IMG/VR virus record: IMGVR_UViG_3300023179_005195
Span: 1-64,000 of that record
Length of the DNA: 64,000 nucleotides
Strand: one strand, 5' to 3'
DNA from: an uncultured virus (IMG/VR IMGVR_UViG_3300023179_005195)
Taxonomy: Duplodnaviria; Heunggongvirae; Uroviricota; Caudoviricetes
How positions within the stretch are numbered: position 1 is the stretch's first letter; each line of letters starts with the position of its first letter. Made by a program: the position numbers and the translations under genes. This document shows, one piece after another, positions 1-38,485 of this stretch. The notes under the pieces were generated by a model. The model was given only the letters and a program-made list of their open reading frames with translations. It ran no database searches and was not told where the DNA came from.

Positions 1-1640
1 TTTACTTGTCCGTTTTTGAACATCATTTCATATCGTTGTTTCTTACCATTGCCTTGTAGAGCAGGGTCATACAATGGTCCCGACCATCCGCCAACGCCTT
101 CCGCCACACCTTGCTCTGGTTTTTTCTTTTCAGGTTTCTTAACAGGCTTGGCCACGTCCTTATCACTAACTGGATAATCTCTTAAATGACGAGTAGTAGC
201 ATTAGGTTTCTTCACTGCCTCTCCCACGCTTTCTGAGGGCCTAGCTCCTGTAGGATAAACTTCTACTTCTTTGCCTTTCATTTTAAGACTTCTAGCAATA
301 TTCATAGCTTGCCTTTGATCGGCAAACACTTTCCAAGGCCTACCATTTATGCTTACCTGGTAGTTATTTCTTTCATGTTCAACTCCAGCATTGCGTTCTC
401 TATTGCGAAAATCGTCGTCTCTTTCTAGTCTGCCTCCGAGGCTAAACTGATCGTCATAGCCACCTTCTGTGAACTTACCACCCTGGCCGAATATCTGTCC
501 GAACTGTTGATCACCCATTTTTGCCAGTAATTGATCACGCTGTTGTTTGCTCAATACAATTTGACTACCATCTACCTTAAAGCCCATTGAGCGTAGTTTA
601 GGACCTAGTTCTGTTTTCTTAAGTTGGTAGGTAAATGTTTTAGGTTGTTCTACAGCATGACCTCCCATTTGACTACTTGGCTTTCCTGGTATAGGCACAC
701 GACGACGCTTGCCATCTGGACCAACAACAAAATGATCTACACCTTTAGGTTTGGTCTCTGGTTCGGAACCTACTTCTGGTTCTTCATAGTTCTTAAATCT
801 TTCGTCCGCACCACTTCGAATTAGATCATTTAGTTCCCTCACCTCATCTTCTATGTCTGTTTCAAAAGCAGAATTTTTAAATACGAACTCGGCCTTTTCT
901 CCGCCGATAAAATCTACATCTGCTAGTGCTTTGTCTAATTCTGCTAGAGCCTGGCTGGCACTAGTCATTAGAAAATTAACTTTTAGAGGACGCTCTTTGC
1001 GACCTTCTTTATCCTTAATACCTACCTTGCTGGCACGGGCCTGCACTTCTGCTGGAAATGTCCCAAAGTCTCCTACTACACGAACAGATTCTGTTCTGTC
1101 TCTTAATAATATTATATAAAGTGTTCCGCTGGGTTTTTCTAATTCTGATAGAGCTTGCTCACCAATATGACCGTCCATGTCTACATCGTGATTGAGATTT
1201 TTGTAGACAGCATTGATATAGTCTGCTGCCTTTGTGATCTTAGCCTGTTGCCAACCTTCTAGACCCTGCTCTTCACTGGCACGCATTAGAATTTTATGTA
1301 GTTCTGCAGCCTGTTTGGCCAACTGGTATGTATCACTCTGCGCCATTTCCACTTCATGATCTGTATGTTGCTCATAGAAAGGCTTGCGATGTTTTTCTTT
1401 GCCCTGTTTTTGATCTCGCTTTTTATCTTTGTGTGCGCCTGCACCTGTCTGTGGGCGTAGGGGACCTTGACGTGGCTTTTGAGGCACCTTGTCATCTTTG
1501 GCTTCTTGTTGACGCTTGATAGTCTTGCCTATAGTGCCCATCGATGTGGCAATATTTGCAGAACCTGTGGCACCTGCGGTCATAGTTTCTAGAACGAAAC
1601 GAGTTAAAGTGGGTGTAGTTATTTTCTTATATTCGCTCAT
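1..1640 (-). CDS. Large multi-segment protein, truncated by the window edge; probable head internal polyprotein
   Basis: Missing from the ORF track. Hand translation from ATG 1640 (MSEYKKITTPTLTRFVLE...) is open to position 1 and contains Glu-ended linkers such as ALSE, SVGE and QGVAEG. Confidence 0.75.
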   Translation of the reverse strand, partial: MSEYKKITTPTLTRFVLETMTAGATGSANIATSMGTIGKTIKRQQEAKDDKVPQKPRQGPLRPQTGAGAHKDKKRDQKQGKEKHRKPFYEQHTDHEVEMAQSDTYQLAKQAAELHKILMRASEEQGLEGWQQAKITKAADYINAVYKNLNHDVDMDGHIGEQALSELEKPSGTLYIILLRDRTESVRVVGDFGTFPAEVQARASKVGIKDKEGRKERPLKVNFLMTSASQALAELDKALADVDFIGGEKAEFVFKNSAFETDIEDEVRELNDLIRSGADERFKNYEEPEVGSEPETKPKGVDHFVVGPDGKRRRVPIPGKPSSQMGGHAVEQPKTFTYQLKKTELGPKLRSMGFKVDGSQIVLSKQQRDQLLAKMGDQQFGQIFGQGGKFTEGGYDDQFSLGGRLERDDDFRNRERNAGVEHERNNYQVSINGRPWKVFADQRQAMNIARSLKMKGKEVEVYPTGARPSESVGEAVKKPNATTRHLRDYPVSDKDVAKPVKKPEKKKPEQGVAEGVGGWSGPLYDPALQGNGKKQRYEMMFKNGQV

Positions 1641-2017
1641 GATTTATTCCAATTTGGTATAGGGCTTACGGTGTTTGTATCTTTAGGTTCTTTACTTTTA
1701 TCATCAGCAATACGTGTACCTTTGACTCCCATTAATTTATCTGCCATGGAAACAACATCTGCATCTTCTGGAGTATATCCTACTATGGTTAAATTTTCAG
1801 CCCATGGACTTTCTTGTTTAAATTCTATTTCACCACTTTTATCTGCCCTTGCTGCTGCCACAGCAAGTGCATATCTATATTGCATATATGGATCAGTATT
1901 TCTTAATTGTCTTTGTACCCATACACCAGGAAGTGCCGCATCTGCGTCTGCTGATAAACTTGTAAATTTACCATGTGTTTTAGCAGATCTTTCCTGCAAA
2001 AATTCCTTTGCTCTCAT
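1637..2017 (-). CDS. Hypothetical protein, paralog of 2017..2358
   Basis: Start moved to MRAKEFLQE; shares Y-x-x-YR and TNTVSP motifs with its neighbour. Confidence 0.75.
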   Translation of the reverse strand: MRAKEFLQERSAKTHGKFTSLSADADAALPGVWVQRQLRNTDPYMQYRYALAVAAARADKSGEIEFKQESPWAENLTIVGYTPEDADVVSMADKLMGVKGTRIADDKSKEPKDTNTVSPIPNWNKS

Positions 2018-2358
2018 TATCTCATCCATTGTGCTACGGGGCTAACTGTGTTTGTTGAAGGCAGTTCTTCACTCTTACCTTTTTTTATAATTACCTTACC
2101 GGTCGCACCTTGATTTTTAAGTGCTTTTTCTACCTTTTGTGCATCTGCATCGGAATATGGCCAAATAGTAGGGGAATCTTTGGCTGGACCTTCTTTCGGA
2201 GTTCCGTCTTCAGGAGCTCCTGCCATGGCCAATCCTAATCTGTAAAAATCATAATATTGATCAGATCCATCTAATCTTAGCGCATATGGTAGAGATAATC
2301 TCGATGCCATACGAATTTTCTTTTCTTTATCTTCGTTTATAAATTCTTTAGCTCTCAT
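2017..2358 (-). CDS. Hypothetical protein, paralog of 1637..2017
   Basis: Start moved to MRAKEFINE (ATGA overlap with the dps stop); ends TNTVSPVAQW. Confidence 0.75.
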   Translation of the reverse strand: MRAKEFINEDKEKKIRMASRLSLPYALRLDGSDQYYDFYRLGLAMAGAPEDGTPKEGPAKDSPTIWPYSDADAQKVEKALKNQGATGKVIIKKGKSEELPSTNTVSPVAQWMR

Positions 2359-2792
2359 CTTTTCATTGATGCTCTTAACATCCATCCATGTTTACGATGA
2401 GCGTCCATACGTCCTGCTATAAAATCACTAAATCCATGTTCATGTTCAGCTTCACTGGCATCGAACACCTGTTTGAAAATAATTAACATTCGTTCGTTAT
2501 CTTTCATAAGTTCAGATACCATTTGATCTTTAGGAAGTATTTGATCTTCATCTTCTATTTTACTCAACATACTGTAACGTGTATAACTGCCTGGCATGTA
2601 AGACCCTAAGCTGCGAATTTTTTCTGCAAAATCATCTATACTTCCATATACTTCTTCATAAATTTTACCGAATAAGTCGTGATATTGTAAGAAATCTTCA
2701 CCCTCTACGTTCCAATGAAATTGGTGTGCTTTTAAGTAAAAACTGAATTCACTGGCAAAAGCAATTTTAGCTATTTCTATTAGTTGTTTCAT
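2355..2792 (-). CDS. dps: Dps-family ferritin-like DNA protection protein
   Basis: HQFHWNVEG, H..F..IYEE and D..AEKIR ferroxidase motifs; C-terminal H.KH.WML. Confidence 0.92.
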   Translation of the reverse strand: MKQLIEIAKIAFASEFSFYLKAHQFHWNVEGEDFLQYHDLFGKIYEEVYGSIDDFAEKIRSLGSYMPGSYTRYSMLSKIEDEDQILPKDQMVSELMKDNERMLIIFKQVFDASEAEHEHGFSDFIAGRMDAHRKHGWMLRASMKR

Positions 2793-2802
2793 AATAATAT
2801 AT

Positions 2803-4962
2803 TTATTTTTGTTCGTTAATTAAAATTGTGTCTAATAAACTCTTGTAGATACTGGCTACATCCTCACTGAGTGGTACAAATTTATCTTCTTTAACCGCAC
2901 CCGGAAATACAGGTGCTAGTCCTTGTCCACTGCCCGGTTTATATCCTGGCGCCATAGGTGCTAGACCTGGTTTCATATTAGATTTCGCACTACCATCACT
3001 ATTCCATACTGCGTCAGGCCACCTAGACATAAAGTCTGCTTTCCATGTCTTATAGGCTTTTAACTGTTGAGCATATTCGTCGTCTGGTAAATCTTGACTA
3101 GGTGCCTTAAATTTGCCGTCTGGAGTAACAGGAATACCATACTCTAATTTCTGTCCCATGCTGTCTTTTGTAACAGGACCGGGTGCTGTGTAGTCTATTT
3201 TTTGTTGCTGTGCTATAGGAGCCGGAGCACGATAACTATCTGGGTCATCTATGTTTACTCTAGCATCTGATTTACCTGGCGCCATAGCCGCAGCAGCCGC
3301 TAATCCAAGTCCTGCTAGTTTAGATTTCCAACCTTCTTCTACACCTTCAGCAAATCCAGATACACGAGATTTGATATCACCTACAGTATAATATCCTTTT
3401 TTATCTTTGTCGAATACTGAATTTTGAGCATATAATTTTCCTTGGTTCAGACCAAACAAAGGTTTGTCACCATTCTTTACACCAATTACAAAGTCATCTG
3501 GTTTGCCCACTGCTGCCGGCATGAATGTAAACATATATAGGTCACCTATGTCTTTGGCCTTGCCTGCTATAGGTTTAAAATAACGCTCTACATAATCTAA
3601 TTGGTCTAATGCACTCATGGTGCGGAGTTCGTCTGTTGAAGTTCCTAGACTCTGCGCTGTGCGTGGCATAAACTGTATTAGTCCTGTAGCACCTGATTGC
3701 TGATTCACTGCTGCTGGATTCATACGTGATTCATGTTTCATTACACCTAATAAATCATTTGCGTTAATCTGTAGATTGTCTGCAACCTGTTTTAGTTTTT
3801 CCATGAATCCAGGTTCTTGTAAGGCATTAGACTTTTGCGGTATTGATGCTTTAGGTTTGTCTAAAGGTGCTACCTGTGCCTGTGCTCTTGCTCTTGTATC
3901 TGGCCTGATATTTGTGTTAGGACCGGATCTTACTGAACCTTTAGGATCACTGCCTTGACTAGGAACATTTAGTGTAGCGCCTGCTTGTATACGATTAGCA
4001 TCTTTTATTTGTGGATTGGCCTTCATTAGAGCATCTACCGTTGTGCCAAATTTCTTAGCCAAAGTGGATAAATTATCTCCGGGGGCAATTTTGTATGAAT
4101 CTTCTTCTATACTTTCTTGAGCATCACCTACAAGATCACCTGCTCTGGCAGGTCTTTTCATTTTACCTTTTAAATGAGCAGCAGCGCCAAGTTTGTTTTT
4201 TGGATAGCCTGCAAATGTGCTAGGTGGTAGCATACGTTCTTTTACGCCACGCTTACCAGCAGGAACCATGCTCATACGCTGTTTAGCCTTGAGCATGAGA
4301 TCCATGACTTCTTCATCACTTAAATTATCTGGCATGTCTCTGCGCCATATGGCAAATTGTTCTTGTTCACTCTTTGAGGGATCCATTAGGACCTGCCGCA
4401 TAGGTGTGGCTCTAGGTCCTTCTTGATATTCTGGACTGCCTCTCATACTGCTGGGTTCTGTAGTATCTTGCCTACTGATAATTTCTAATTGATCTATTCC
4501 TGCTTCTTTATATGGTGGAACGCCTGTTGATTTAGCAGGACGAGTTAGATATCCCATTGAGTCTTTTTGGTCTTCACCTACAACCAATATGACTTTATTA
4601 AATCCTTCACGGGCAATTTTTGCCATGACCTGTTCTAACTTAGTAGCATCTGCCGTGGCCACACTGAATACTTCTGCATTTTGTGGGAATACCTTGCGAT
4701 AAGTATTGAGTTTTTCGTCTGGTGTAAGAGGATCATCTTTGGTCTTGGTAAATGTGGGTTTATCTGCCCAGGGTTGACCTGTGCTAGGATCTACTAGACT
4801 AGTTCTACTGACCACAAAGAAAGGTTTAGCTTGATTTTCTTGAGCATGATGCAGTACAGCTTTGGCCAATAGCATATGACCTTTGTGTCCCATACCTCTA
4901 CCCCATCCTAACACTGCGGTTTTAGGTGTTGACGTATTTTCAAATAATTGTCTTAATAACAT
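2803..4962 (-). CDS. Fusion of HIGH-superfamily (cytidylyltransferase-like) nucleotidyltransferase, LysM, SLT lytic transglycosylase and an unknown C-terminal segment
   Basis: GRGMGHKGH (HxGH); YKIAPGDNLSTLAKKFGTTVDALMKANP (LysM); MKHESRMNPAAVN..SGATGLIQFMP (SLT). Confidence 0.85.
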   Translation of the reverse strand: MLLRQLFENTSTPKTAVLGWGRGMGHKGHMLLAKAVLHHAQENQAKPFFVVSRTSLVDPSTGQPWADKPTFTKTKDDPLTPDEKLNTYRKVFPQNAEVFSVATADATKLEQVMAKIAREGFNKVILVVGEDQKDSMGYLTRPAKSTGVPPYKEAGIDQLEIISRQDTTEPSSMRGSPEYQEGPRATPMRQVLMDPSKSEQEQFAIWRRDMPDNLSDEEVMDLMLKAKQRMSMVPAGKRGVKERMLPPSTFAGYPKNKLGAAAHLKGKMKRPARAGDLVGDAQESIEEDSYKIAPGDNLSTLAKKFGTTVDALMKANPQIKDANRIQAGATLNVPSQGSDPKGSVRSGPNTNIRPDTRARAQAQVAPLDKPKASIPQKSNALQEPGFMEKLKQVADNLQINANDLLGVMKHESRMNPAAVNQQSGATGLIQFMPRTAQSLGTSTDELRTMSALDQLDYVERYFKPIAGKAKDIGDLYMFTFMPAAVGKPDDFVIGVKNGDKPLFGLNQGKLYAQNSVFDKDKKGYYTVGDIKSRVSGFAEGVEEGWKSKLAGLGLAAAAAMAPGKSDARVNIDDPDSYRAPAPIAQQQKIDYTAPGPVTKDSMGQKLEYGIPVTPDGKFKAPSQDLPDDEYAQQLKAYKTWKADFMSRWPDAVWNSDGSAKSNMKPGLAPMAPGYKPGSGQGLAPVFPGAVKEDKFVPLSEDVASIYKSLLDTILINEQK

Positions 4963-4963
4963 A

Positions 4964-6094
4964 TTAGTCTTTCCTTGGTGCCCATGTTGCTTGATCTATG
5001 GCCTTGACAAATTGCCCAGGTAGATCACTCTTGAATTTGCCACCTGGATGTGCTTGAACATAACCTTCTGGTTTAGTCTGTCTAATACCTGCATGTGTTC
5101 CTGAACTTAGTTTAGTGATTAGATCTGTTTTAGCCTTGCTCAATAACTCTACAGCATCTAGCACAGTTTCTAGACCAGGATCGTTTAGAACCTTTGCAGC
5201 TTGCGATTGGCTGAGATTTTGTGCTGCCCAAGCCTTAAACTTTTGTTTTGTTCCTTCTATGCGCAGATTTTGGTTATAGAATTTGTAAAGTATATCACCT
5301 ACCTTACTTAATCCTGGTTTGGGTGCTAGGAATTGATCTATGCGTTGACCGTTCTTTTCAATAAAACCTTCTGCTTGATCTACTAATGTATCATCTATGC
5401 CAGGTGCCTGTGCCACATAGGTAGTGCCTTGAACAATTACGTCTGGTGTAGATAGTTTTTCTGCATCTGGAAAACGTCCTTCATCTGAACTGCCTAGACT
5501 ATCATAATAACCTGTAACAGCTACCATAAGTTTGGCCTTGGAAATACGCTGTCCTAGCTCACTGTCTTTATGAATATGGAAGCTGGTAATGTTTGGAGTA
5601 AAGTCATACTCCATAGTTTTAGAATTTAGTTGAGCAGGTTTTTCTGGACTGAACAGTATACCACCTTCTACATAACCTCGAGGTGGACTGGCTTTTTCAA
5701 AGTAGGGCCATAATTCTGCCATGCTGTTGGCAAAGGCCTGTCGCTGTTTTTCTTGACCGGGTTCTACTTTGCCTGTGCCCAACACAAACTTTTTAATGTC
5801 ATCTGGACTATACATCGCAGTAGGAACACCTGGGGCAACTTCTGATTTGCCACGCTTGAGATATTCCCAGGCATTTTTAGGAATCATTGAAAAGCGACCT
5901 TGTTCATCACGCCCCCAGTAGACAACAGGGCTACCGTCCCACTTAATTTCAACAGTGCCACCAGTTGATGCCATGCTGCGCAGGCGTTCTGCGGCATGAA
6001 GTCCACCTTGACTACCATTGGTAAACACAAGGTCTTCTATGTGTTGATATTTGCGACCAACTGCTGCCGCTTCTAGTAGTTCCCTAATTCTCAT
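4964..6094 (-). CDS. DUF6267-like protein with ligase/capping-type nucleotidyltransferase motifs
   Basis: HIEDLVF, KWDGSP (KxDG motif I), YVEGG, PEGYV and FVK resemble covalent nucleotidyltransferase motifs. Confidence 0.65.
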   Translation of the reverse strand: MRIRELLEAAAVGRKYQHIEDLVFTNGSQGGLHAAERLRSMASTGGTVEIKWDGSPVVYWGRDEQGRFSMIPKNAWEYLKRGKSEVAPGVPTAMYSPDDIKKFVLGTGKVEPGQEKQRQAFANSMAELWPYFEKASPPRGYVEGGILFSPEKPAQLNSKTMEYDFTPNITSFHIHKDSELGQRISKAKLMVAVTGYYDSLGSSDEGRFPDAEKLSTPDVIVQGTTYVAQAPGIDDTLVDQAEGFIEKNGQRIDQFLAPKPGLSKVGDILYKFYNQNLRIEGTKQKFKAWAAQNLSQSQAAKVLNDPGLETVLDAVELLSKAKTDLITKLSSGTHAGIRQTKPEGYVQAHPGGKFKSDLPGQFVKAIDQATWAPRKD

Positions 6095-6984
6095 ATTAGA
6101 TCCAGGACGATCCTAAACCATTGAGGTGTGCCCACAGCATGACTTTCTTTTAGTCTATACTGTGTGTTATATTTTTCCAGTCCAGCATTGACATTTTGTA
6201 CAACATCATTATAGTGATTAGGATGTGTCTGTTTAAATTTAGCCAGTATGGCATTAATGTTGTCTAGATCGCTGGCCTTGCCACCGAATAGGATATTGGC
6301 TACTTCATTAGGATCTTTGCTAACTACCTGTTTGGTAGCACGGTCAAATAGGCCATTCTTAAAACTCCAACTAAGGCCCTGTGGATGTTCTGGACTGATT
6401 AACTTACTACCTATGGCCGCTAGCAGAATATGACGAAAGGCACCTTTGGCACGACTGTCTTTTGGTGTGCCAGGTTCATTAGGTTCACCACGTTTGCTCC
6501 ATACTGAAAACTTACCTTCTCCAGGTTCTGCTATGTCCAGGTCTACTTGTAGCCATTCTTCTGTGCCTGGTATTTGCACACAGGCTGTGAGTCCATCTCC
6601 GGATATCTTATAGAATCTTCCTGGTTGGTCTACTGTGGCTTTCTTTTCAAGAAATTCATAACCTGCTGTCTGTAGTTTTTTGGCTAAAAATTCTCTAAAT
6701 TGATTCTGCACATCTTTAGGTTTGGCACCTTTATCTACAGGTATAAATTCTACAGGATCTAACAGTGTGTCTGCGTCACCTGTTTCTGCACCAGGATATA
6801 TAGCACTGCCTGTTTTATATTTAGGTTTGTTTTCTAGATCGTTGGCCAGTAAGTCTATGCCTATTTCTTTGCTCAATGCACCTAAGACTGCATCTACTTC
6901 TTCCGTAGACGCTGACTGTTTAGTGGCATTGCTACCATCTGCAAGTTTAAATTCATTGCCACCTTCTGCTAGAAACATAATCAC
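6091..6984 (-). CDS. Pol-beta-superfamily nucleotidyltransferase-like protein
   Basis: TGSAIYPGAETGDADTLLD (GS..DxD) plus a downstream QVDL carboxylate. Confidence 0.65.
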   Translation of the reverse strand: MIMFLAEGGNEFKLADGSNATKQSASTEEVDAVLGALSKEIGIDLLANDLENKPKYKTGSAIYPGAETGDADTLLDPVEFIPVDKGAKPKDVQNQFREFLAKKLQTAGYEFLEKKATVDQPGRFYKISGDGLTACVQIPGTEEWLQVDLDIAEPGEGKFSVWSKRGEPNEPGTPKDSRAKGAFRHILLAAIGSKLISPEHPQGLSWSFKNGLFDRATKQVVSKDPNEVANILFGGKASDLDNINAILAKFKQTHPNHYNDVVQNVNAGLEKYNTQYRLKESHAVGTPQWFRIVLDLI

Positions 6985-7337
6985 CCCAGCCTATATTTGC
7001 CCGCACGAACGTCTTCATAGTAGTGATCGTATAGACGTTGACAAAGCTCCTCTCTCATTTCTTGAGGAAATAATTTACTTAATCTACCCTCCATTTTTTG
7101 ATTATGATAATATTCTTTACAGCCCTTAATAACCATAGGCATAAAAATTTCTATTATTTTTTTATCTGTGTTTTCTTTTAAATGTTTTAATTTTTTTGCA
7201 ATTGGAAAAAAATAATCTTTATGCAGCTTGTCATGATCTAAAATATAATGAAACAAATCATCTTTATATGTAGACGATTCGTGGTTTTCTTTTCTATGTA
7301 AATTTATAGGATTATTAAAAAATTCGTTAAGTAACAT
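6981..7337 (-). CDS. Hypothetical protein
   Basis: Co-oriented ORF overlapping the next start; N-terminus MLLNEFF. Confidence 0.75.
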   Translation of the reverse strand: MLLNEFFNNPINLHRKENHESSTYKDDLFHYILDHDKLHKDYFFPIAKKLKHLKENTDKKIIEIFMPMVIKGCKEYYHNQKMEGRLSKLFPQEMREELCQRLYDHYYEDVRAGKYRLG

Positions 7338-7340
7338 GAT

Positions 7341-7832
7341 TTATTCCCATGCCCTACATGACCAATAACGTGCTTTCCAACGTGGTCCGGGATTTTTGCA
7401 ATTATGACGAGCTCTAAAACTCTTTCGGCGTTTTGGATTAGACTTTTTAATTTTCATTTTCTTGTCGCCGAAATTTACCTTGACTACCCTACCACTTGGT
7501 CCCTTAACATAGACTTTAGACTTTTTGACATCCCCCGCCATAGGCTTACCTAAAGGGACATTACGACCTTGATATTCTGCTTCAGATAAGTCACTAATAT
7601 CACCACCGCCTTCCATAACTGCCAGTTCCATACTGGTAAACTTTGTGATAGATTCATTAAAAGGTTCATATTTTAGATAAGAAAGAATAACAGAGTCTCC
7701 TTGTATTACTACGCCGTCGTTCATAAATCCTACTATGGTAGATTCAATAAGTAGTCCATTATCACATTCTATAGCTAGAACATCGCCGGTTCTTAAATTG
7801 TTATCTTCTGTTAAAATATCTATTATTCTCAT
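7341..7832 (-). CDS. Hypothetical protein with a basic, conserved-looking C-terminal domain
   Basis: VNFGD...RRKSFRARHNC...ARYWSC after an LSE|AEY junction; N-terminus MRIIDILTE. Confidence 0.75.
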   Translation of the reverse strand: MRIIDILTEDNNLRTGDVLAIECDNGLLIESTIVGFMNDGVVIQGDSVILSYLKYEPFNESITKFTSMELAVMEGGGDISDLSEAEYQGRNVPLGKPMAGDVKKSKVYVKGPSGRVVKVNFGDKKMKIKKSNPKRRKSFRARHNCKNPGPRWKARYWSCRAWE

Positions 7833-11755: not shown

Positions 11756-14029
11756 TTATTCAATTTCCGTTGTAACGCTTTGTTTTTTAGTTTTTACAGG
11801 CATTATATCTAATATATTGAATACAATTTTATCATCTATAATATCTAATTCTACAAGCCCGCCGTTATTAAGTTTTCCGAAAAGAATTTCTTTACTAAGG
11901 GGTTTCTTGATATGTTCGTCAATAGCTCGTGACAAAGGTCTAGCTCCCATTTTTGAATTAAACCCTTTGGCGATTAAGAAATCAGTCGCAGCTAAATTAG
12001 GTCTAACATGAATATTTTTTTCTTTAATTAATACATTTAGATCATCTATAAATTTGTTTACAATTTTTACCATGGTAATTTTATCAAGTTTTCCAAATTT
12101 TACCATACCATCTAAACGGTTTCTAAATTCAGGCGCAAAAAATCTGTTCACAGCATCTTTAGGGTCGCCGTCTCTTTCTAGACTACCAAACCCTACAGAA
12201 TTGCGTTCAGCATCTGCAGCACCTAAGTTTGAAGTCATAATAATTAAAGCATTACGTCCATCTGCTTTTTTACCATTGCTGCCTGTTATAAATCCATTAT
12301 CCATAAGTTGTAATAAGATACTAAGTACGTCGGGATGTGCCTTTTCTACCTCGTCGAGCAATAGTACGCAGTTAGGATTTTCTTGTAGACTGGTAATAAG
12401 TTGACCTGCATTTTCTTCAAACCCAACATATCCTGGCGGACTGCCTAAAAATTTAGCCACTGAATGTTTTTCTTGAAACTCACTCATATCAAATCTTATT
12501 AGTTTAATCCCTAGCCCAGTGGCTAGTTGCTTTGCTGTTTCAGTTTTACCTACTCCAGTTGGCCCAACAAACAAAAAGCTACCAATAGGTTTATCAACTG
12601 CTTTAAGACCTGCTTGACTAATATAGATTTTATCAACTAAACTTTCTATGGCCTTTTCTTGCCCAAAGATTTTTTGACGTAGTGTTTTGTCCAAGTTTTC
12701 AAGATTTACTGATTCTTTAGCACCTACCTGTTCTATAGGAAGATTTGCTATCTTAGCAACTTCAAAAACAATTTCCTCATGGTCTACTACACCGTTTTCT
12801 TCGTCTTTTACCTTAAACCGAGCACAAGCACAGTCAATAAGGTCTAATGCTTTGTCTGGCAATTTTTTATCAGGAATATACTTGACTGAATAACTTACTG
12901 CATCTAACAATGCTTGATTAGTAATTTTTACACCGTGATGTTTTTCGTAATATTTTTTTACACCTTTAAGAATTTTTATACAAGTATCCTCACTAGGCTC
13001 ATCAATTACTACACGTTGAAAACGTCTCATCAATGCACGATCTTTTTCAAAATGTTTACGAAATTCTTCCCATGTAGTACTAGCAACTACTTTAATAGTT
13101 CCTTTTGTTAGTATTGGCTTTAACATATTAGCCATATCATTGCTGTTGCCGCTGGCTGCGCCTGCACCATTCATCATATGAGCTTCATCTATGAACAATA
13201 TACAATTTTTCTTTCTTTCTAAGGCAGTTAAAACAGTTTTTAATCTTTCTTCAAAATCACCTCTATATTTTGAACCGGCAAGTAGTGAACTAATATCTAA
13301 ACTGTAGACACTGTGTTCTTTAATAAAAGAGGGAACATTATCTTCTACAATATTTTTAGCAAGTCCTTCTGCTATAGCAGTTTTTCCTACTCCTGGGTCT
13401 CCTATTAAAATTACGTTACTTTTATTACGTCTTGCCAACACTAATTGAACTTCTTCAATTTCTTTTTCTCTTCCTATAACAGGATCTATTTTTTTATTTT
13501 TAGCTTTTAATGTCAAATTTACGCAAAACTGATTTAGAAGTTTTTCTAAGTGTGGATGTAATCTTGTTTCACCTGTTTCATCCTCTACCACTTCTTTTAT
13601 ATTTTCTTTTTGTAAAAAGTTAATCAATTTATCTTTATCTATTTTTGCTCGTTTAAGAAAATAATGAGCATAACTTTTCTTTTCTGTAAATATTGCAAGT
13701 AAACAATCTATTGGTTCGATGACAGTTTTTCCGCCAAAAAGAACTGTAGTAAATGTTTTGTTTAATACTCTGTCAAATGTTTGAGTTTTCCTAGGTTTTT
13801 GTATCTCGAGATTGACAATATTAGATAGTTCTTCTTCTAAATATCTATCTAAATCGCTATTTAAACTAGTTAGGTCTGCCCCAAAGTCAGTTAAAATTTT
13901 GTTAAGTTCTTGACTATTAATTAAACAATGTAAAAAATGCTCTAAAGTGATATACTCATGATGCATTTTCATAGCTTTTATTACTGCCTGTTCAAAAACT
14001 CCTTCAAGTTCTTTATTTGGTGAAATCAT
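11756..14029 (-). CDS. clpA: ATP-dependent Clp protease ATPase subunit ClpA
   Basis: Two AAA+ modules (GDPGVGKT, GPTGVGKT), Clp N-domain HEYITLEH and ClpP-docking SVGF loop; start moved to MISPNK. Confidence 0.93.
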   Translation of the reverse strand: MISPNKELEGVFEQAVIKAMKMHHEYITLEHFLHCLINSQELNKILTDFGADLTSLNSDLDRYLEEELSNIVNLEIQKPRKTQTFDRVLNKTFTTVLFGGKTVIEPIDCLLAIFTEKKSYAHYFLKRAKIDKDKLINFLQKENIKEVVEDETGETRLHPHLEKLLNQFCVNLTLKAKNKKIDPVIGREKEIEEVQLVLARRNKSNVILIGDPGVGKTAIAEGLAKNIVEDNVPSFIKEHSVYSLDISSLLAGSKYRGDFEERLKTVLTALERKKNCILFIDEAHMMNGAGAASGNSNDMANMLKPILTKGTIKVVASTTWEEFRKHFEKDRALMRRFQRVVIDEPSEDTCIKILKGVKKYYEKHHGVKITNQALLDAVSYSVKYIPDKKLPDKALDLIDCACARFKVKDEENGVVDHEEIVFEVAKIANLPIEQVGAKESVNLENLDKTLRQKIFGQEKAIESLVDKIYISQAGLKAVDKPIGSFLFVGPTGVGKTETAKQLATGLGIKLIRFDMSEFQEKHSVAKFLGSPPGYVGFEENAGQLITSLQENPNCVLLLDEVEKAHPDVLSILLQLMDNGFITGSNGKKADGRNALIIMTSNLGAADAERNSVGFGSLERDGDPKDAVNRFFAPEFRNRLDGMVKFGKLDKITMVKIVNKFIDDLNVLIKEKNIHVRPNLAATDFLIAKGFNSKMGARPLSRAIDEHIKKPLSKEILFGKLNNGGLVELDIIDDKIVFNILDIMPVKTKKQSVTTEIE

Positions 14030-14031
14030 TT

Positions 14032-14520
14032 TTATTTCCTTTTCTTTTTTAATGCTAGGTCCCATTTAAGGCGACTCACACGATCTTTAAACACAATCCC
14101 ATCTAAATGATCGAGTTCGTGTTGAAAGCATTTACTACCTAAGTCAGTAAATGTACCTACTTGAAATTCTCCTTTACTATCTTGCCAAGAGCAATGTACA
14201 AACTTACTACGTTTTATTTTAACAAAAATATTCGGAAAACTCAAGCATCCTTCAGGTAAATCCTCTATTTCTTCTTCAAAATCTATAATTTTTGGATTAA
14301 AATATGCCTGGGAATCACCCTGTATAGCATAATCACCCATGACGAACACTCTGGCTTTTATCCCAACCTGATTAGCTGATAATCCTATACCCTTGTTTGT
14401 AATCATAGTTGATATTAAATTCTTTTCTAACTCTATAGGATCTACTATAGGATTAGCAAAATCGAATTCCGGCATTTTTTCAGACAGAATAGGATGCGGG
14501 AAAGATAAAATTTTGTACAT
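14032..14520 (-). CDS. def: Peptide deformylase
   Basis: GIGLSANQVG, EGCLSFP and QHELDHLDG motifs. Confidence 0.95.
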   Translation of the reverse strand: MYKILSFPHPILSEKMPEFDFANPIVDPIELEKNLISTMITNKGIGLSANQVGIKARVFVMGDYAIQGDSQAYFNPKIIDFEEEIEDLPEGCLSFPNIFVKIKRSKFVHCSWQDSKGEFQVGTFTDLGSKCFQHELDHLDGIVFKDRVSRLKWDLALKKKRK

Positions 14521-14523
14521 AGA

Positions 14524-15351
14524 TTATTTAAAGGCTTGTTTTAATAAAGATTTTTGTTGATCTGTAACATATGTAGGTATGGTAATTTGAACATTAATCA
14601 GAAGCCTGCCCCTCATGTTAGAGTTACTCATATTCGGCATTCCTTGATTAGGAATACTTAATAATTGGCCATGTTGTGTTCCTGGAGGGATAGCTACTTC
14701 TATTGTTTTTCCATCTATACAATCTATATCTTTAGTTTTACCTAATATAGCATCTATGCAGTTTAATTTCAAATCGTAGTATAAATCATCTTCTTCTCTT
14801 CTAAAAGTGTTATGATTTTTAATAATCACTGTTAAATGTATATCACCTTTAGGTATTCCTTGTATAGAGTCGTCACCCATGTTAGCCAAACGTAACACAG
14901 TACCAGTTCTAACACCTTTGGGAATTTTAACTTCTACGGTTTGATTTCTGCCGCTTGGTAATTGAATATTCGCAATAAGGTCTTTACTAAAAAAAGCATC
15001 TTCTAATGTAATTTCTGTTTGTAAATTTATTGTTCTGTTTCTAACGGGAGCCTGTCGTCTAAAAGGACCACCGAACATATCTCCGAATGGATGATTAGTA
15101 AAAAACTGTTCAAATCCGGGGGGAACATTGTTTGAAAATTCAAAATGAAATCCCTGAGGTTGAGGATTATCGTATTCCGCACGTTTTTGTGGATCGCTTA
15201 ATACATCATATGCTGCTTGTATTTCTTGAAATTTACCTTTGTCACCTCCTCTGTCAGGATGATGTTTTGCAGCTAATTGTCTATAGGCTCGCTTAATAGT
15301 TTCAGGATCTGCTGAGCGATCTACTCCTAGGGTTGAATATAAGTCTGTCAT
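14524..15351 (-). CDS. dnaJ: DnaJ/CbpA-type co-chaperone without zinc finger
   Basis: J-domain with HPD; DnaJ C-terminal domain; no CxxCxGxG repeats. Confidence 0.9.
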
Positions 15352-37900: not shown

Positions 37901-38485
37901 TTATCTGGAGGCTACGATCCTATCACATAGTCCATAAACAAATGCTTCTTCTGCACTCATAAACTTATCGCGATCCATGTCACGCTCAAAGTCTTCATAG
38001 GTCTTACCTGCGGTATTATGTTTCACATACAGGTTGGTTAACATATGTTTCATGGCCATAATTTCTTTATAGGAAATTTCAATATCTGATGCCATACCTC
38101 TAGCACCTCCACTGGGCTGGTGAATCATATGGCGTGCATGGGGCAACATATAGCGTTTACCCGCAGTGCCTGCCTGTGCTAAAAATGACCCCATAGAACA
38201 GGCTTGCCCTAAAACATATGTGGCAATGTCTGGTTTAACAAACTGCATGACATCATAGATAGCCATGCCTGCTGTAATTATACCGCCTGGGCTATTGATA
38301 TAAAAATTAATATCTTTGTCAGAGTCTTGACTTTCTAAGTGTAGAATTTGAGCGATGATTAAATTACTTACATTGTCGTCTACTGGACCATTTAGAAAAA
38401 CAATACGTTCGTTTAAAAGTCTACTGTAAATGTCAAAGGCACGTTCACCTTGACTGGTCCGTTCAATTACCATAGGTACTAGCAT
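37901..38485 (-). CDS. clpP: ClpP protease proteolytic subunit
   Basis: [24 protein letters not shown] (Ser), MIHQP (His), MDRD (Asp). Confidence 0.96.

Follow-up and report, generated by a model that had tools for sequence, protein, structure and literature searches.

African swine fever virus (ASFV) encodes a family-X DNA polymerase and a DNA ligase that together make up a minimal viral pair for filling gaps and sealing them. In phage T4, the protease gp21 is described as cleaving after L/I-X-E, and a leader of 10 residues as being enough for loading into the head (PMC9026906). Here, we describe a trio of adjacent genes at positions 2803-6984 (minus strand) of a 64,000-nucleotide stretch of DNA from an uncultured virus of the Caudoviricetes (IMG/VR record IMGVR_UViG_3300023179_005195, positions 1 to 64,000; hereafter the window). 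The trio encodes a minimal enzyme resembling family-X polymerases (PolX), a ligase-fold protein of the DUF6267 family and a HIGH-superfamily nucleotidyltransferase domain, each preceded by a leader ending in Glu, and its best reading is as a fill-and-seal repair kit delivered along with the phage DNA. The phage itself is an uncultured jumbo phage related to T4, of which the window covers a fragment (record G000, 73 kb, with an estimated completeness of 17%), and the sequencing runs carrying its sequence are freshwater metagenomes.

Results

The three open reading frames (ORFs) lie on the minus strand at 6091-6984 (gene 1; 297 aa from a GTG or 295 aa from an ATG at 6978), 4964-6094 (gene 2; 376 aa) and 2803-4962 (gene 3; 719 aa), and are joined by one 4-nt overlap and one 1-nt gap. 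Checked against the ORF list and the sequence, these limits and the strand agree with a first-pass annotation that a model had made from the sequence alone. Because contigs from the runs of other studies span the genes and their junctions (X7, 3938-7039, with 8 differences; X13, 3215-6162), the trio is not an assembly artefact. The motifs that the annotation had singled out (GS..DxD, KWDG/EGYV and HxGH) are present as G57-S58 with D68-x-D70, as K51-W-D-G with E343-G-Y-V, and as H26-K-G-H29, and since the key residues are invariant across the aligned homologues (51 of 51 for gene 1, 106 of 106 for gene 2) they are not chance resemblances. The claim of three unrelated nucleotidyl-transfer folds is backed by structure comparison for genes 1 and 2 and by profile matches for gene 3.

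The AlphaFold2 model of gene 1 (predicted local distance difference test, pLDDT, 92.9; 51 sequences) was compared by VIA with 48,161 PDB representatives. Nine rows had Z of at least 8, the tool's approximate guide value, and every one is a family-X DNA polymerase, among them, at Z 9.4-9.7, TdT (9.7), Pol beta (9.5) and ASFV PolX (9.5; root-mean-square deviation, rmsd, 3.3 over 162 of 176 residues). The PolX alignments cover residues 9-242 of the model and take in both palm and thumb of these three polymerases, whereas those with other nucleotidyltransferases (CD-NTases, TUTases and CCA enzymes) are confined to the palm, ending at about 160-179, and reach no more than Z 6.8. Foldseek agrees (best E 7e-4, Pol mu). 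A reading of gene 1 as a CD-NTase or cGAS was ruled out by the palm-only match. Both a lyase domain and HhH fingers are missing; G57, S58, D68, D70 and D146 are invariant in all 51 aligned homologues, as is K178-G179. No Pfam or PHROG family fits the protein, and Pfam scans of the 51 family members gave no match to PolX or RlaP (PF10127) and a weak one to NTP_transf_2 in three only; PDB sequence searches found no solved relative of either gene 1 or gene 2. Since there is no PolX profile match, and neither the Arg of GSxRRG nor that of helix N appears to be conserved, we label gene 1, as modeled, a minimal PolX-like enzyme and not a filed member of family X. A reading of gene 1 as a terminal RNA transferase gives way to this fold, which moves the odds from tRNA repair to duplex gap filling.

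The leader of gene 1 (6964-6978) comprises five residues and would leave a mature N-terminus at E5|G6-G7-N8 (L-A-E|G-G-N). Among 150 representatives of DUF6267 discussed below, the PolX-like domain starts at E|G in 23 of 24 cases and at M-S-G in the 24th, and the leaderless PolX-like proteins of phages Atu_ph07 and PA5oct and of a Flavobacterium phage begin M-G-G or M-S-G. The predicted mature N-terminus therefore has a fixed position, and a fixed Gly N-terminus may matter for PolX-like activity. Distant phages carry another PolX-like paralogue, which starts with E|GGW or M-S-G and is fused to DUF6267 or HIGH (P0246, P0249, P0296; L255:6908-9631); in the Flavobacterium phage immuto the two paralogues occur together with HIGH, yet there is no PF19782 match.

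Gene 2 matches DUF6267 (PF19782) with E 1.7e-17 and 64.3 bits, against a curated cut-off of 27. For its AlphaFold2 model (pLDDT 94.0; 106 sequences) the top 14 VIA rows hold polynucleotide ligases only (Z 4.9-6.2, 144-189 residues aligned), the best being the nick-sealing ligase NgrRnl (Z 6.2, rmsd 4.8, 183 aligned) and TbREL1 (Z 6.2, rmsd 5.0, 175 aligned). K51, D53, G54, E343, G344 and K364 are invariant in 106 of 106 aligned homologues; K51 was assigned to motif I, E343 to motif IV and K364 to motif V, and K73 was also marked. Because the list of hits is uniform and K51-x-D-G, E343-G and K364 are invariant, the modeled protein can be assigned an ATP-grasp nucleotidyltransferase fold and placed, with modest confidence, in the covalent-nucleotidyltransferase (ligase) superfamily. 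It has a helical insertion at about 235-331. The domains of NAD-dependent DNA ligases (Ia, OB, Zn finger, HhH) were found neither in the 376-aa model nor in the Pfam scan, which matched DUF6267 and no Rnl2, Rnl5 or other ligase family; PDB sequences gave no match. With 2,515 clusters at 50% identity, and ESM Atlas clusters that are 96-100% viral, DUF6267 is a very large, virus-restricted family.

Gene 3 had been described as a HIGH-family domain, which holds for residues 14-240 or so (4243-4923); the remainder of its 719 aa, which had been overlooked, consists of a LysM domain (290-334, E 2e-12), a lytic transglycosylase at about 380-535 (SLT, 394-444, E 2e-9) and a C-terminal segment. I/V-x-E sites lie between these parts, so that the ORF is probably a polyprotein cut at several Glu sites. 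The HIGH domain carries H26-K-G-H29, G-E-D-Q (129-132) and R-A-T-P-M-R (184-189), with the G-H of the HIGH motif invariant in 19 of 19 aligned members. It is homologous to a cyanophage 'cytidyltransferase' (phrog_3041, E 8.6e-9); against PDB sequences it gives a weak NadD match (E 0.21), and 6 of the 19 members match TIGR00482 NadD (best E 6.8e-8), the window protein itself remaining unmatched. By these matches the N-terminal domain is a HIGH-superfamily nucleotidyltransferase, whose relatives score best against NadD/NadR-type profiles, all below curated cut-offs.

This likeness to NadD and NadR bears on the first-pass proposal of NAD salvage, here NAD+ salvage against NADase defenses in the manner of NARP2, with the HIGH domain as the NMNAT. 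Such a role is proposed in cyanophage papers (PMC9602691, PMC10665884), and HIGH-kinase fusions resemble NadR. NAMPT or NAPRTase was found in 0 of 5 genomes, one of them the relative G001, whose 400-kb genome is complete (the 17%-complete genome of the window is outside the five), whereas the phages with NadM in the account of PMC9503650 all carry NadV; NARP2-type salvage is for this reason disfavored. In addition, the fused kinase is AAA_33/Zeta/PNK-like, no profile match reaches its cut-off, and genes 1 and 2 would be left without explanation, and we regard NAD salvage as most improbable.

The slot behind the HIGH domain is hypervariable: 63 cargos of the window's clade fall into 14 clusters, and the 11 clusters scanned include LysM-VanY, peptidoglycan-binding and GNAT domains. 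Among the examined loci, similarity to LysM-SLT was found only in L001 and L054, both identical to the window. Once cleaved out inside the head, this module of the window (3358-4095, minus strand) would form a cell-wall enzyme of its own. After a V-E-E site, residues 545-568 or so of gene 3 (about 3260-3330, minus strand) form a basic-hydrophobic-AxA stretch that looks like a signal peptide and matches no family. In another locus (L239:7050-9095) HIGH is fused to a RimK-like ATP-grasp domain and a domain of an ATP-dependent Zn-protease family.

Gene order was examined in 83 loci of the window's clade, a redundant set in which counts were restricted to loci with enough flank. PolX lies directly upstream of DUF6267 in 72 of 79 loci and further off in three, HIGH lies directly downstream in 65 of 65, and the genes are also fused, as 28 PolX-ligase, 7 ligase-HIGH and 5 triple fusions. 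Co-occurrence in other phages, which the first-pass annotation had named as a check on its proposal, is borne out by this conserved order and these fusions. Four loci (L005, L006, L033 and L037) hold DUF6267 and HIGH with the PolX-like gene gone from the upstream slot and amount to natural deletions. Among the 150 best representatives of the 50%-identity clusters, a PolX-like domain occurs in 22, a HIGH domain in 25 and both in 7. Distant loci were gathered using single distant proteins as queries. HIGH follows DUF6267 in 67 of 67 cases among 80 cyanophage-type loci; in a third set of loci it is adjacent in 35 of 65 and nearby in 8. Of these links, that between HIGH and the ligase occurs most often, with PolX as a partner that can be exchanged. 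One lineage (L208-L235, L170-L172) has DUF6267 with a leader but lacks both HIGH and PolX genes over a distance of 6 kb; its DUF6267 is followed by a conserved gene of about 220 aa that resembles, by eye, the Atu_ph07 virion protein gp64.

The upstream slot of the cyanophage-type loci, the cultured phages and part of the third set is occupied by 108 genes in 21 clusters, many of them unrelated. A loose PD-(D/E)xK-like pattern (D...[SE]xK) is present in 10 of 15 representatives tested, and Pfam and PHROGs name none of the cyanophage genes. These proteins (L089-L168, L173-L249; PA5oct gp229; DLP_6 gp065) could either belong to the module or act on their own as homing endonucleases. In 15 of 23 non-redundant third-set loci with HIGH the block holds a PNK-like kinase (Pfam AAA_33/Zeta; PHROG 'polynucleotide kinase'), and in 4 of 23 a HAD phosphatase.

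These neighbors can be seen as a healing set of the T4 Pnkp type, and would suit an RNA (tRNA) repair kit of the RlaP plus Rnl-like kind, in which gene 1 restores 3' nucleotides after a host anticodon nuclease has cut and gene 2 religates the ends. RlaP is described as adding a nucleoside monophosphate (NMP) to damaged RNA 3'-OH ends beside RNA ligases (PMC12776372, PMC7824862), and the top fold matches of gene 2 are OB-less RNA ligases. Gene 1, however, has a PolX thumb and scores far higher against DNA polymerases X than against CCA, TUTase or PAP enzymes, and none of its 51 family members matched RlaP. No kinase, phosphatase or 2H gene was found in the window-clade cluster, and cyanophage-type loci hold nuclease-like genes, by a loose motif, in the PolX slot. 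We therefore consider an RNA repair kit unlikely.

Among cultured phages, DUF6267 and HIGH lie about 65 kb apart in S-CREM2, whose ORF153 is a late sigma factor and not DUF6267. In Atu_ph07 and PA5oct a KxDG ligase-fold gene adjoins, or lies within 1.3 kb of, the leaderless PolX-like gene. A PF19782 search of both genomes gave no match, and profile comparison with DUF6267 is weak (PA5oct gp228, E 0.0012, probability 19%; Atu gp66, E 0.039, probability 1%); PA5oct gp228 is tied to DUF6267 by Foldseek only (446-aa PA5oct entry, E 2.9e-6), and Atu_ph07 gp66 is only a KxDG ligase-fold protein, labeled RNA ligase in the reference library.

A Glu-ended leader on each protein was another early claim. 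All three do end in Glu (MFLAE, MRIRELLE and MLLRQLFE), and those of gene 2 (8 aa, 6071-6094, ending L-L-E) and gene 3 (8 aa, 4939-4962, ending L-F-E) look like capsid-targeting leaders; the five-residue leader of gene 1 lacks the M-x-I/L-x-E-L part. In the window's clade, hydrophobic-X-E precedes the domain in every distinct context (PolX 36/36, ligase 48/48, HIGH 44/44, fusion linkers included), against a background of 9% of 9-residue windows in ligase cores, although the window used for HIGH was wider and the sequences are related. A cleavage site is present in every fusion linker. The leader pattern, partly circular in that it was devised with these genes in view, occurs in 4 of 103 window ORFs, all within 2803-7832, a head-cargo block that takes in two further leader-bearing genes upstream (118 and 163 aa; 6981-7832, minus strand), the 118-aa gene overlapping gene 1. 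The relative G001 encodes a gp21-type prohead protease, and the two marks of T4-type head cargo, a leader ending in L/I-X-E and a gp21 protease, are thus both found.

Virion proteomes of cultured phages speak to the early proposal that the trio is co-injected. For gene-1 homologues, Atu_ph07 gp65 is listed in Table S5 of PMC6102473 (10 peptides, 36.8%), and its mass of 32.16 kDa is consistent with the listed virion protein; PA5oct gp231 is placed in the virion by a GenBank note (electrospray ionization tandem mass spectrometry). For gene-3 homologues, S-SZBM1 gp140 is given as a virion protein (PMC9146016), as is S-CREM2 ORF154, for which the authors allow for contamination (PMC10665884). The proposal gains support for these two partners and is weakened for the ligase-like protein, which went undetected in the four proteomes. 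In cyanophage-type loci HIGH bears a leader that the ligase-like protein lacks; because the former is in virions and the latter is not, leaders appear to track packaging in cyanophages. The PolX-like proteins of Atu_ph07 and PA5oct are packaged despite having no leader. Since the ligase-like protein is undetected and without a clear leader in all four cultured phages, co-packaging of the complete trio is plausible, on the leader sequences, for the window's clade specifically.

The three proteins might also share no pathway at all, being independent head cargo in a late operon with a polyprotein packaging route, so that fusion serves packaging only. The cleavage sites in every linker agree with this, as do the unrelated LysM-SLT module fused in the same way, the distance of about 65 kb in S-CREM2, and the cyanophage pattern of a packaged, leader-bearing HIGH and a leaderless ligase-like protein. 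Yet the adjacency of ligase and HIGH is kept where just one partner has a leader (67 of 67), and a KxDG ligase-fold gene lies near a leaderless PolX-like gene in both Atu_ph07 and PA5oct. Wholly independent cargo seems to us quite improbable.

Cyanomyoviruses are described as having no recognizable g30 ligase, unless a distant homologue was overlooked (PMC2984593). The PF01068 ligase was absent from all seven cultured Kyanoviridae tested, where RNA-ligase families were outside the search, and an NAD ligase from the three genomes tested for it. DUF6267 is present in all seven, six of which have it in the region of the replication genes uvsX and gp41, and is on these grounds a candidate for the missing cyanophage ligase. 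Replacement of gp30 by DUF6267 everywhere was ruled out, as G001, PA5oct and DLP_6 also carry a PF01068 gp30-type ligase; for the same reason its role in the window's clade would be accessory.

Several neighbors complete the picture of the locus. A Dps/ferritin-like gene lies downstream of the trio (2355-2792, minus strand), and Dps is a common downstream neighbor in relatives; past it, at 1637-2385 (minus strand), are two paralogous genes of about 125 aa with an internal M-R-A-K-E-F leader. At 11756-15351 and 37901-38485 (minus strand) are genes that we take, from their motifs, to be ClpA-like ATPase, deformylase-like, DnaJ-like and ClpP-like. In many relatives the trio has a ClpA-like gene, so labeled by its motifs, two to four genes upstream.

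Discussion

The best reading of the trio is fill-and-seal end repair, acting on duplex breaks as infection begins and most likely on the phage's own incoming DNA. We favor it tentatively and give it a chance somewhat short of even; we infer packaging in the window's phage, as well as every activity and substrate named here. The trio would be made late, loaded into the prohead by its leaders and freed by a gp21-type protease at hydrophobic-X-Glu sites. After injection, the PolX-like enzyme would add one or a few nucleotides, possibly ribonucleotides, to the 3'-OH at a nick, gap or break; ribonucleotide addition is carried out by Pol mu and LigD-POL. DUF6267 would then form Lys51-NMP and seal the nick in the manner of the Rnl2/Rnl5 nick-sealing ligases. 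Finally, the HIGH domain may adenylate a phosphomonoester (a nucleotide resembling nicotinamide mononucleotide, or a 5'-phosphate end), thereby supplying or recycling an activated pyrophosphate-linked intermediate. This last step is the weakest and, taken by itself, doubtful.

A number of findings weigh against fill-and-seal repair. The fold match of gene 2 is modest: its best Z of 6.2 is under the VIA guide value, and the best Foldseek match has E 7.6e-3, with nothing in the PDB below E 0.001. The protein lacks a C-terminal OB domain, its chain ending 12 residues past K364, and the basic helical insertion is shorter in the window's clade than in distant members (a median of 49 aa against 76 aa, and a net charge of +2 against +6). 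With motifs III and IIIa assigned by alignment, the acid of motif III is Gly in 21 of 21 members of the window's clade and Asp in 63 of 63 distant members, and the Phe-His of IIIa is replaced by Ala/Val-Thr (Ala/Val in 21 of 21), distant members having mostly Phe. The clade keeps Glu at 49 and 143; from these columns its nucleotide pocket is probably remodeled, and its ligase chemistry may be changed or lost. Gene 1 seemingly lacks both the Arg of the Pol beta GSxRR motif and an equivalent of R283, as we read the alignment against Pol beta numbering. G001 already has a gp30-type DNA ligase, and the ligase-like protein is absent from all four virion lists (Atu gp66, PA5oct gp228, S-SZBM1 gp141 and S-CREM2). 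Finally, PolX is missing from 4 of 79 loci in the window's clade, from 63 of 63 of the cyanophage type and from 68 of 69 in the third set; in that set the flank of 22 of 65 loci lacks HIGH. Kinase and phosphatase genes occur in 0 of 52 loci of the window's clade.

The altered motifs III and IIIa and the absent OB domain would also suit an anti-defense nucleotide chemistry, in which the NMP on Lys51 of DUF6267 is passed on to a protein or a nucleotide (as NMPylation, capping or dinucleotide formation) and HIGH makes the donor or the acceptor. Of the two partners HIGH is the more constant (65/65 and 67/67), and its cargo slot holds effector-type domains (GNAT, VanY, peptidoglycan-binding, RimK-like), like the head-packaged effectors described in PMC9503650. 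But such a chemistry leaves unexplained why many lineages have DUF6267 fused to a PolX palm-thumb enzyme and why there are kinase and phosphatase neighbors, and CD-NTases stay at or below Z 6.8 against gene 1; its chance is, in our judgment, small, much like that of RNA repair.

Returning to fill-and-seal repair, the observations can be drawn together in a more speculative scenario, which we would not expect to hold in full. DUF6267 would be a new family of OB-less ligases that shares the ligation chemistry with a HIGH adenylyltransferase and would be the ligase missing from cyanomyoviruses; with a PolX-like enzyme it would have been rebuilt into a virion kit of jumbo phages that mends the genome after entry, the PolX-like enzyme being armed only after the prohead protease has exposed its Gly-Gly N-terminus.

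Literature searches, which covered sources outside the subscription journals, returned no published description of DUF6267 or of the trio, and the main text of a jumbo-phage survey does not mention PolX (PMC7824862). New here are the pattern across virion proteomes, the active-site changes that mark the clade, the fixed N-terminal Gly-Gly, the search of genomes for NAMPT and the LysM-SLT cargo. DUF6267 provides a directly testable candidate for a ligase gap that is stated in print (PMC2984593). If correct, a repair kit carried in the head would allow survival of restriction or CRISPR cuts before phage gene expression. Relatives are found in the cultured phages PA5oct, Atu_ph07, S-PM2, P-TIM40 and DLP_6, making enzymology and knockouts feasible, and a compact new polymerase-ligase pair could serve as a tool.

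Compared with ASFV Pol X and its DNA ligase (PDB 5hr9), the trio shares a family-X fold of palm and thumb only (Z 9.5, 162 aligned), three catalytic aspartates and a ligase-fold partner. It differs in that gene 1 has an extra C-terminal helical domain (residues 223-294 or so) and 15% identity, the ligase lacks an OB domain and comes with an attached HIGH enzyme, the proteins bear head-targeting leaders, and no AP (apurinic/apyrimidinic) endonuclease is found in the cluster. With NgrRnl (Naegleria Rnl5, 5cot), Trypanosoma REL1 and T4 Rnl2, gene 2 shares the covalent-nucleotidyltransferase fold, the KxDG lysine, the EG(Y/F)V motif IV, the motif V lysine and the lack of OB; unlike them it has a helical insertion of about 95 residues between IIIa and IV, an invariant N-terminal H-x-E-D and, in the window's clade, changed motifs III and IIIa, and the similarity stays at 10-13% identity and Z 6.2 without a ligase-family Pfam match. 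Systems of RlaP (PF10127) and an RNA ligase likewise link a Pol-beta-superfamily nucleotidyltransferase to an ATP-grasp ligase in phages, with the same logic of adding nucleotides and then sealing; here gene 1 is PolX-like with a thumb (RlaP match 0/51), the ligase is DUF6267, and the HIGH partner and head leaders are extra.

The HIGH fold, (H/T)xGH, GxD and C-terminal SxTxxR-like motifs are common to gene 3, NadD, NadM, NadR and the cyanophage 'cytidyltransferase' (phrog_3041, phrog_395), the last being a direct homologue that has been found in virions. In contrast to the NadD, NadM and NadR enzymes, the gene 3 type stays below curated cut-offs, has no NAMPT partner, carries GWGRGMG in place of GxFNPP and is followed by variable C-terminal cargo. 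Lastly, the short leaders ending in hydrophobic-X-Glu, the internal polyprotein sites and the gp21 homologue of G001 recall the T4 head cargo (IPI-III and Alt, cut by gp21 at L/I-X-E), whereas the predicted cargo of the window consists of three nucleotidyl-transfer enzymes.

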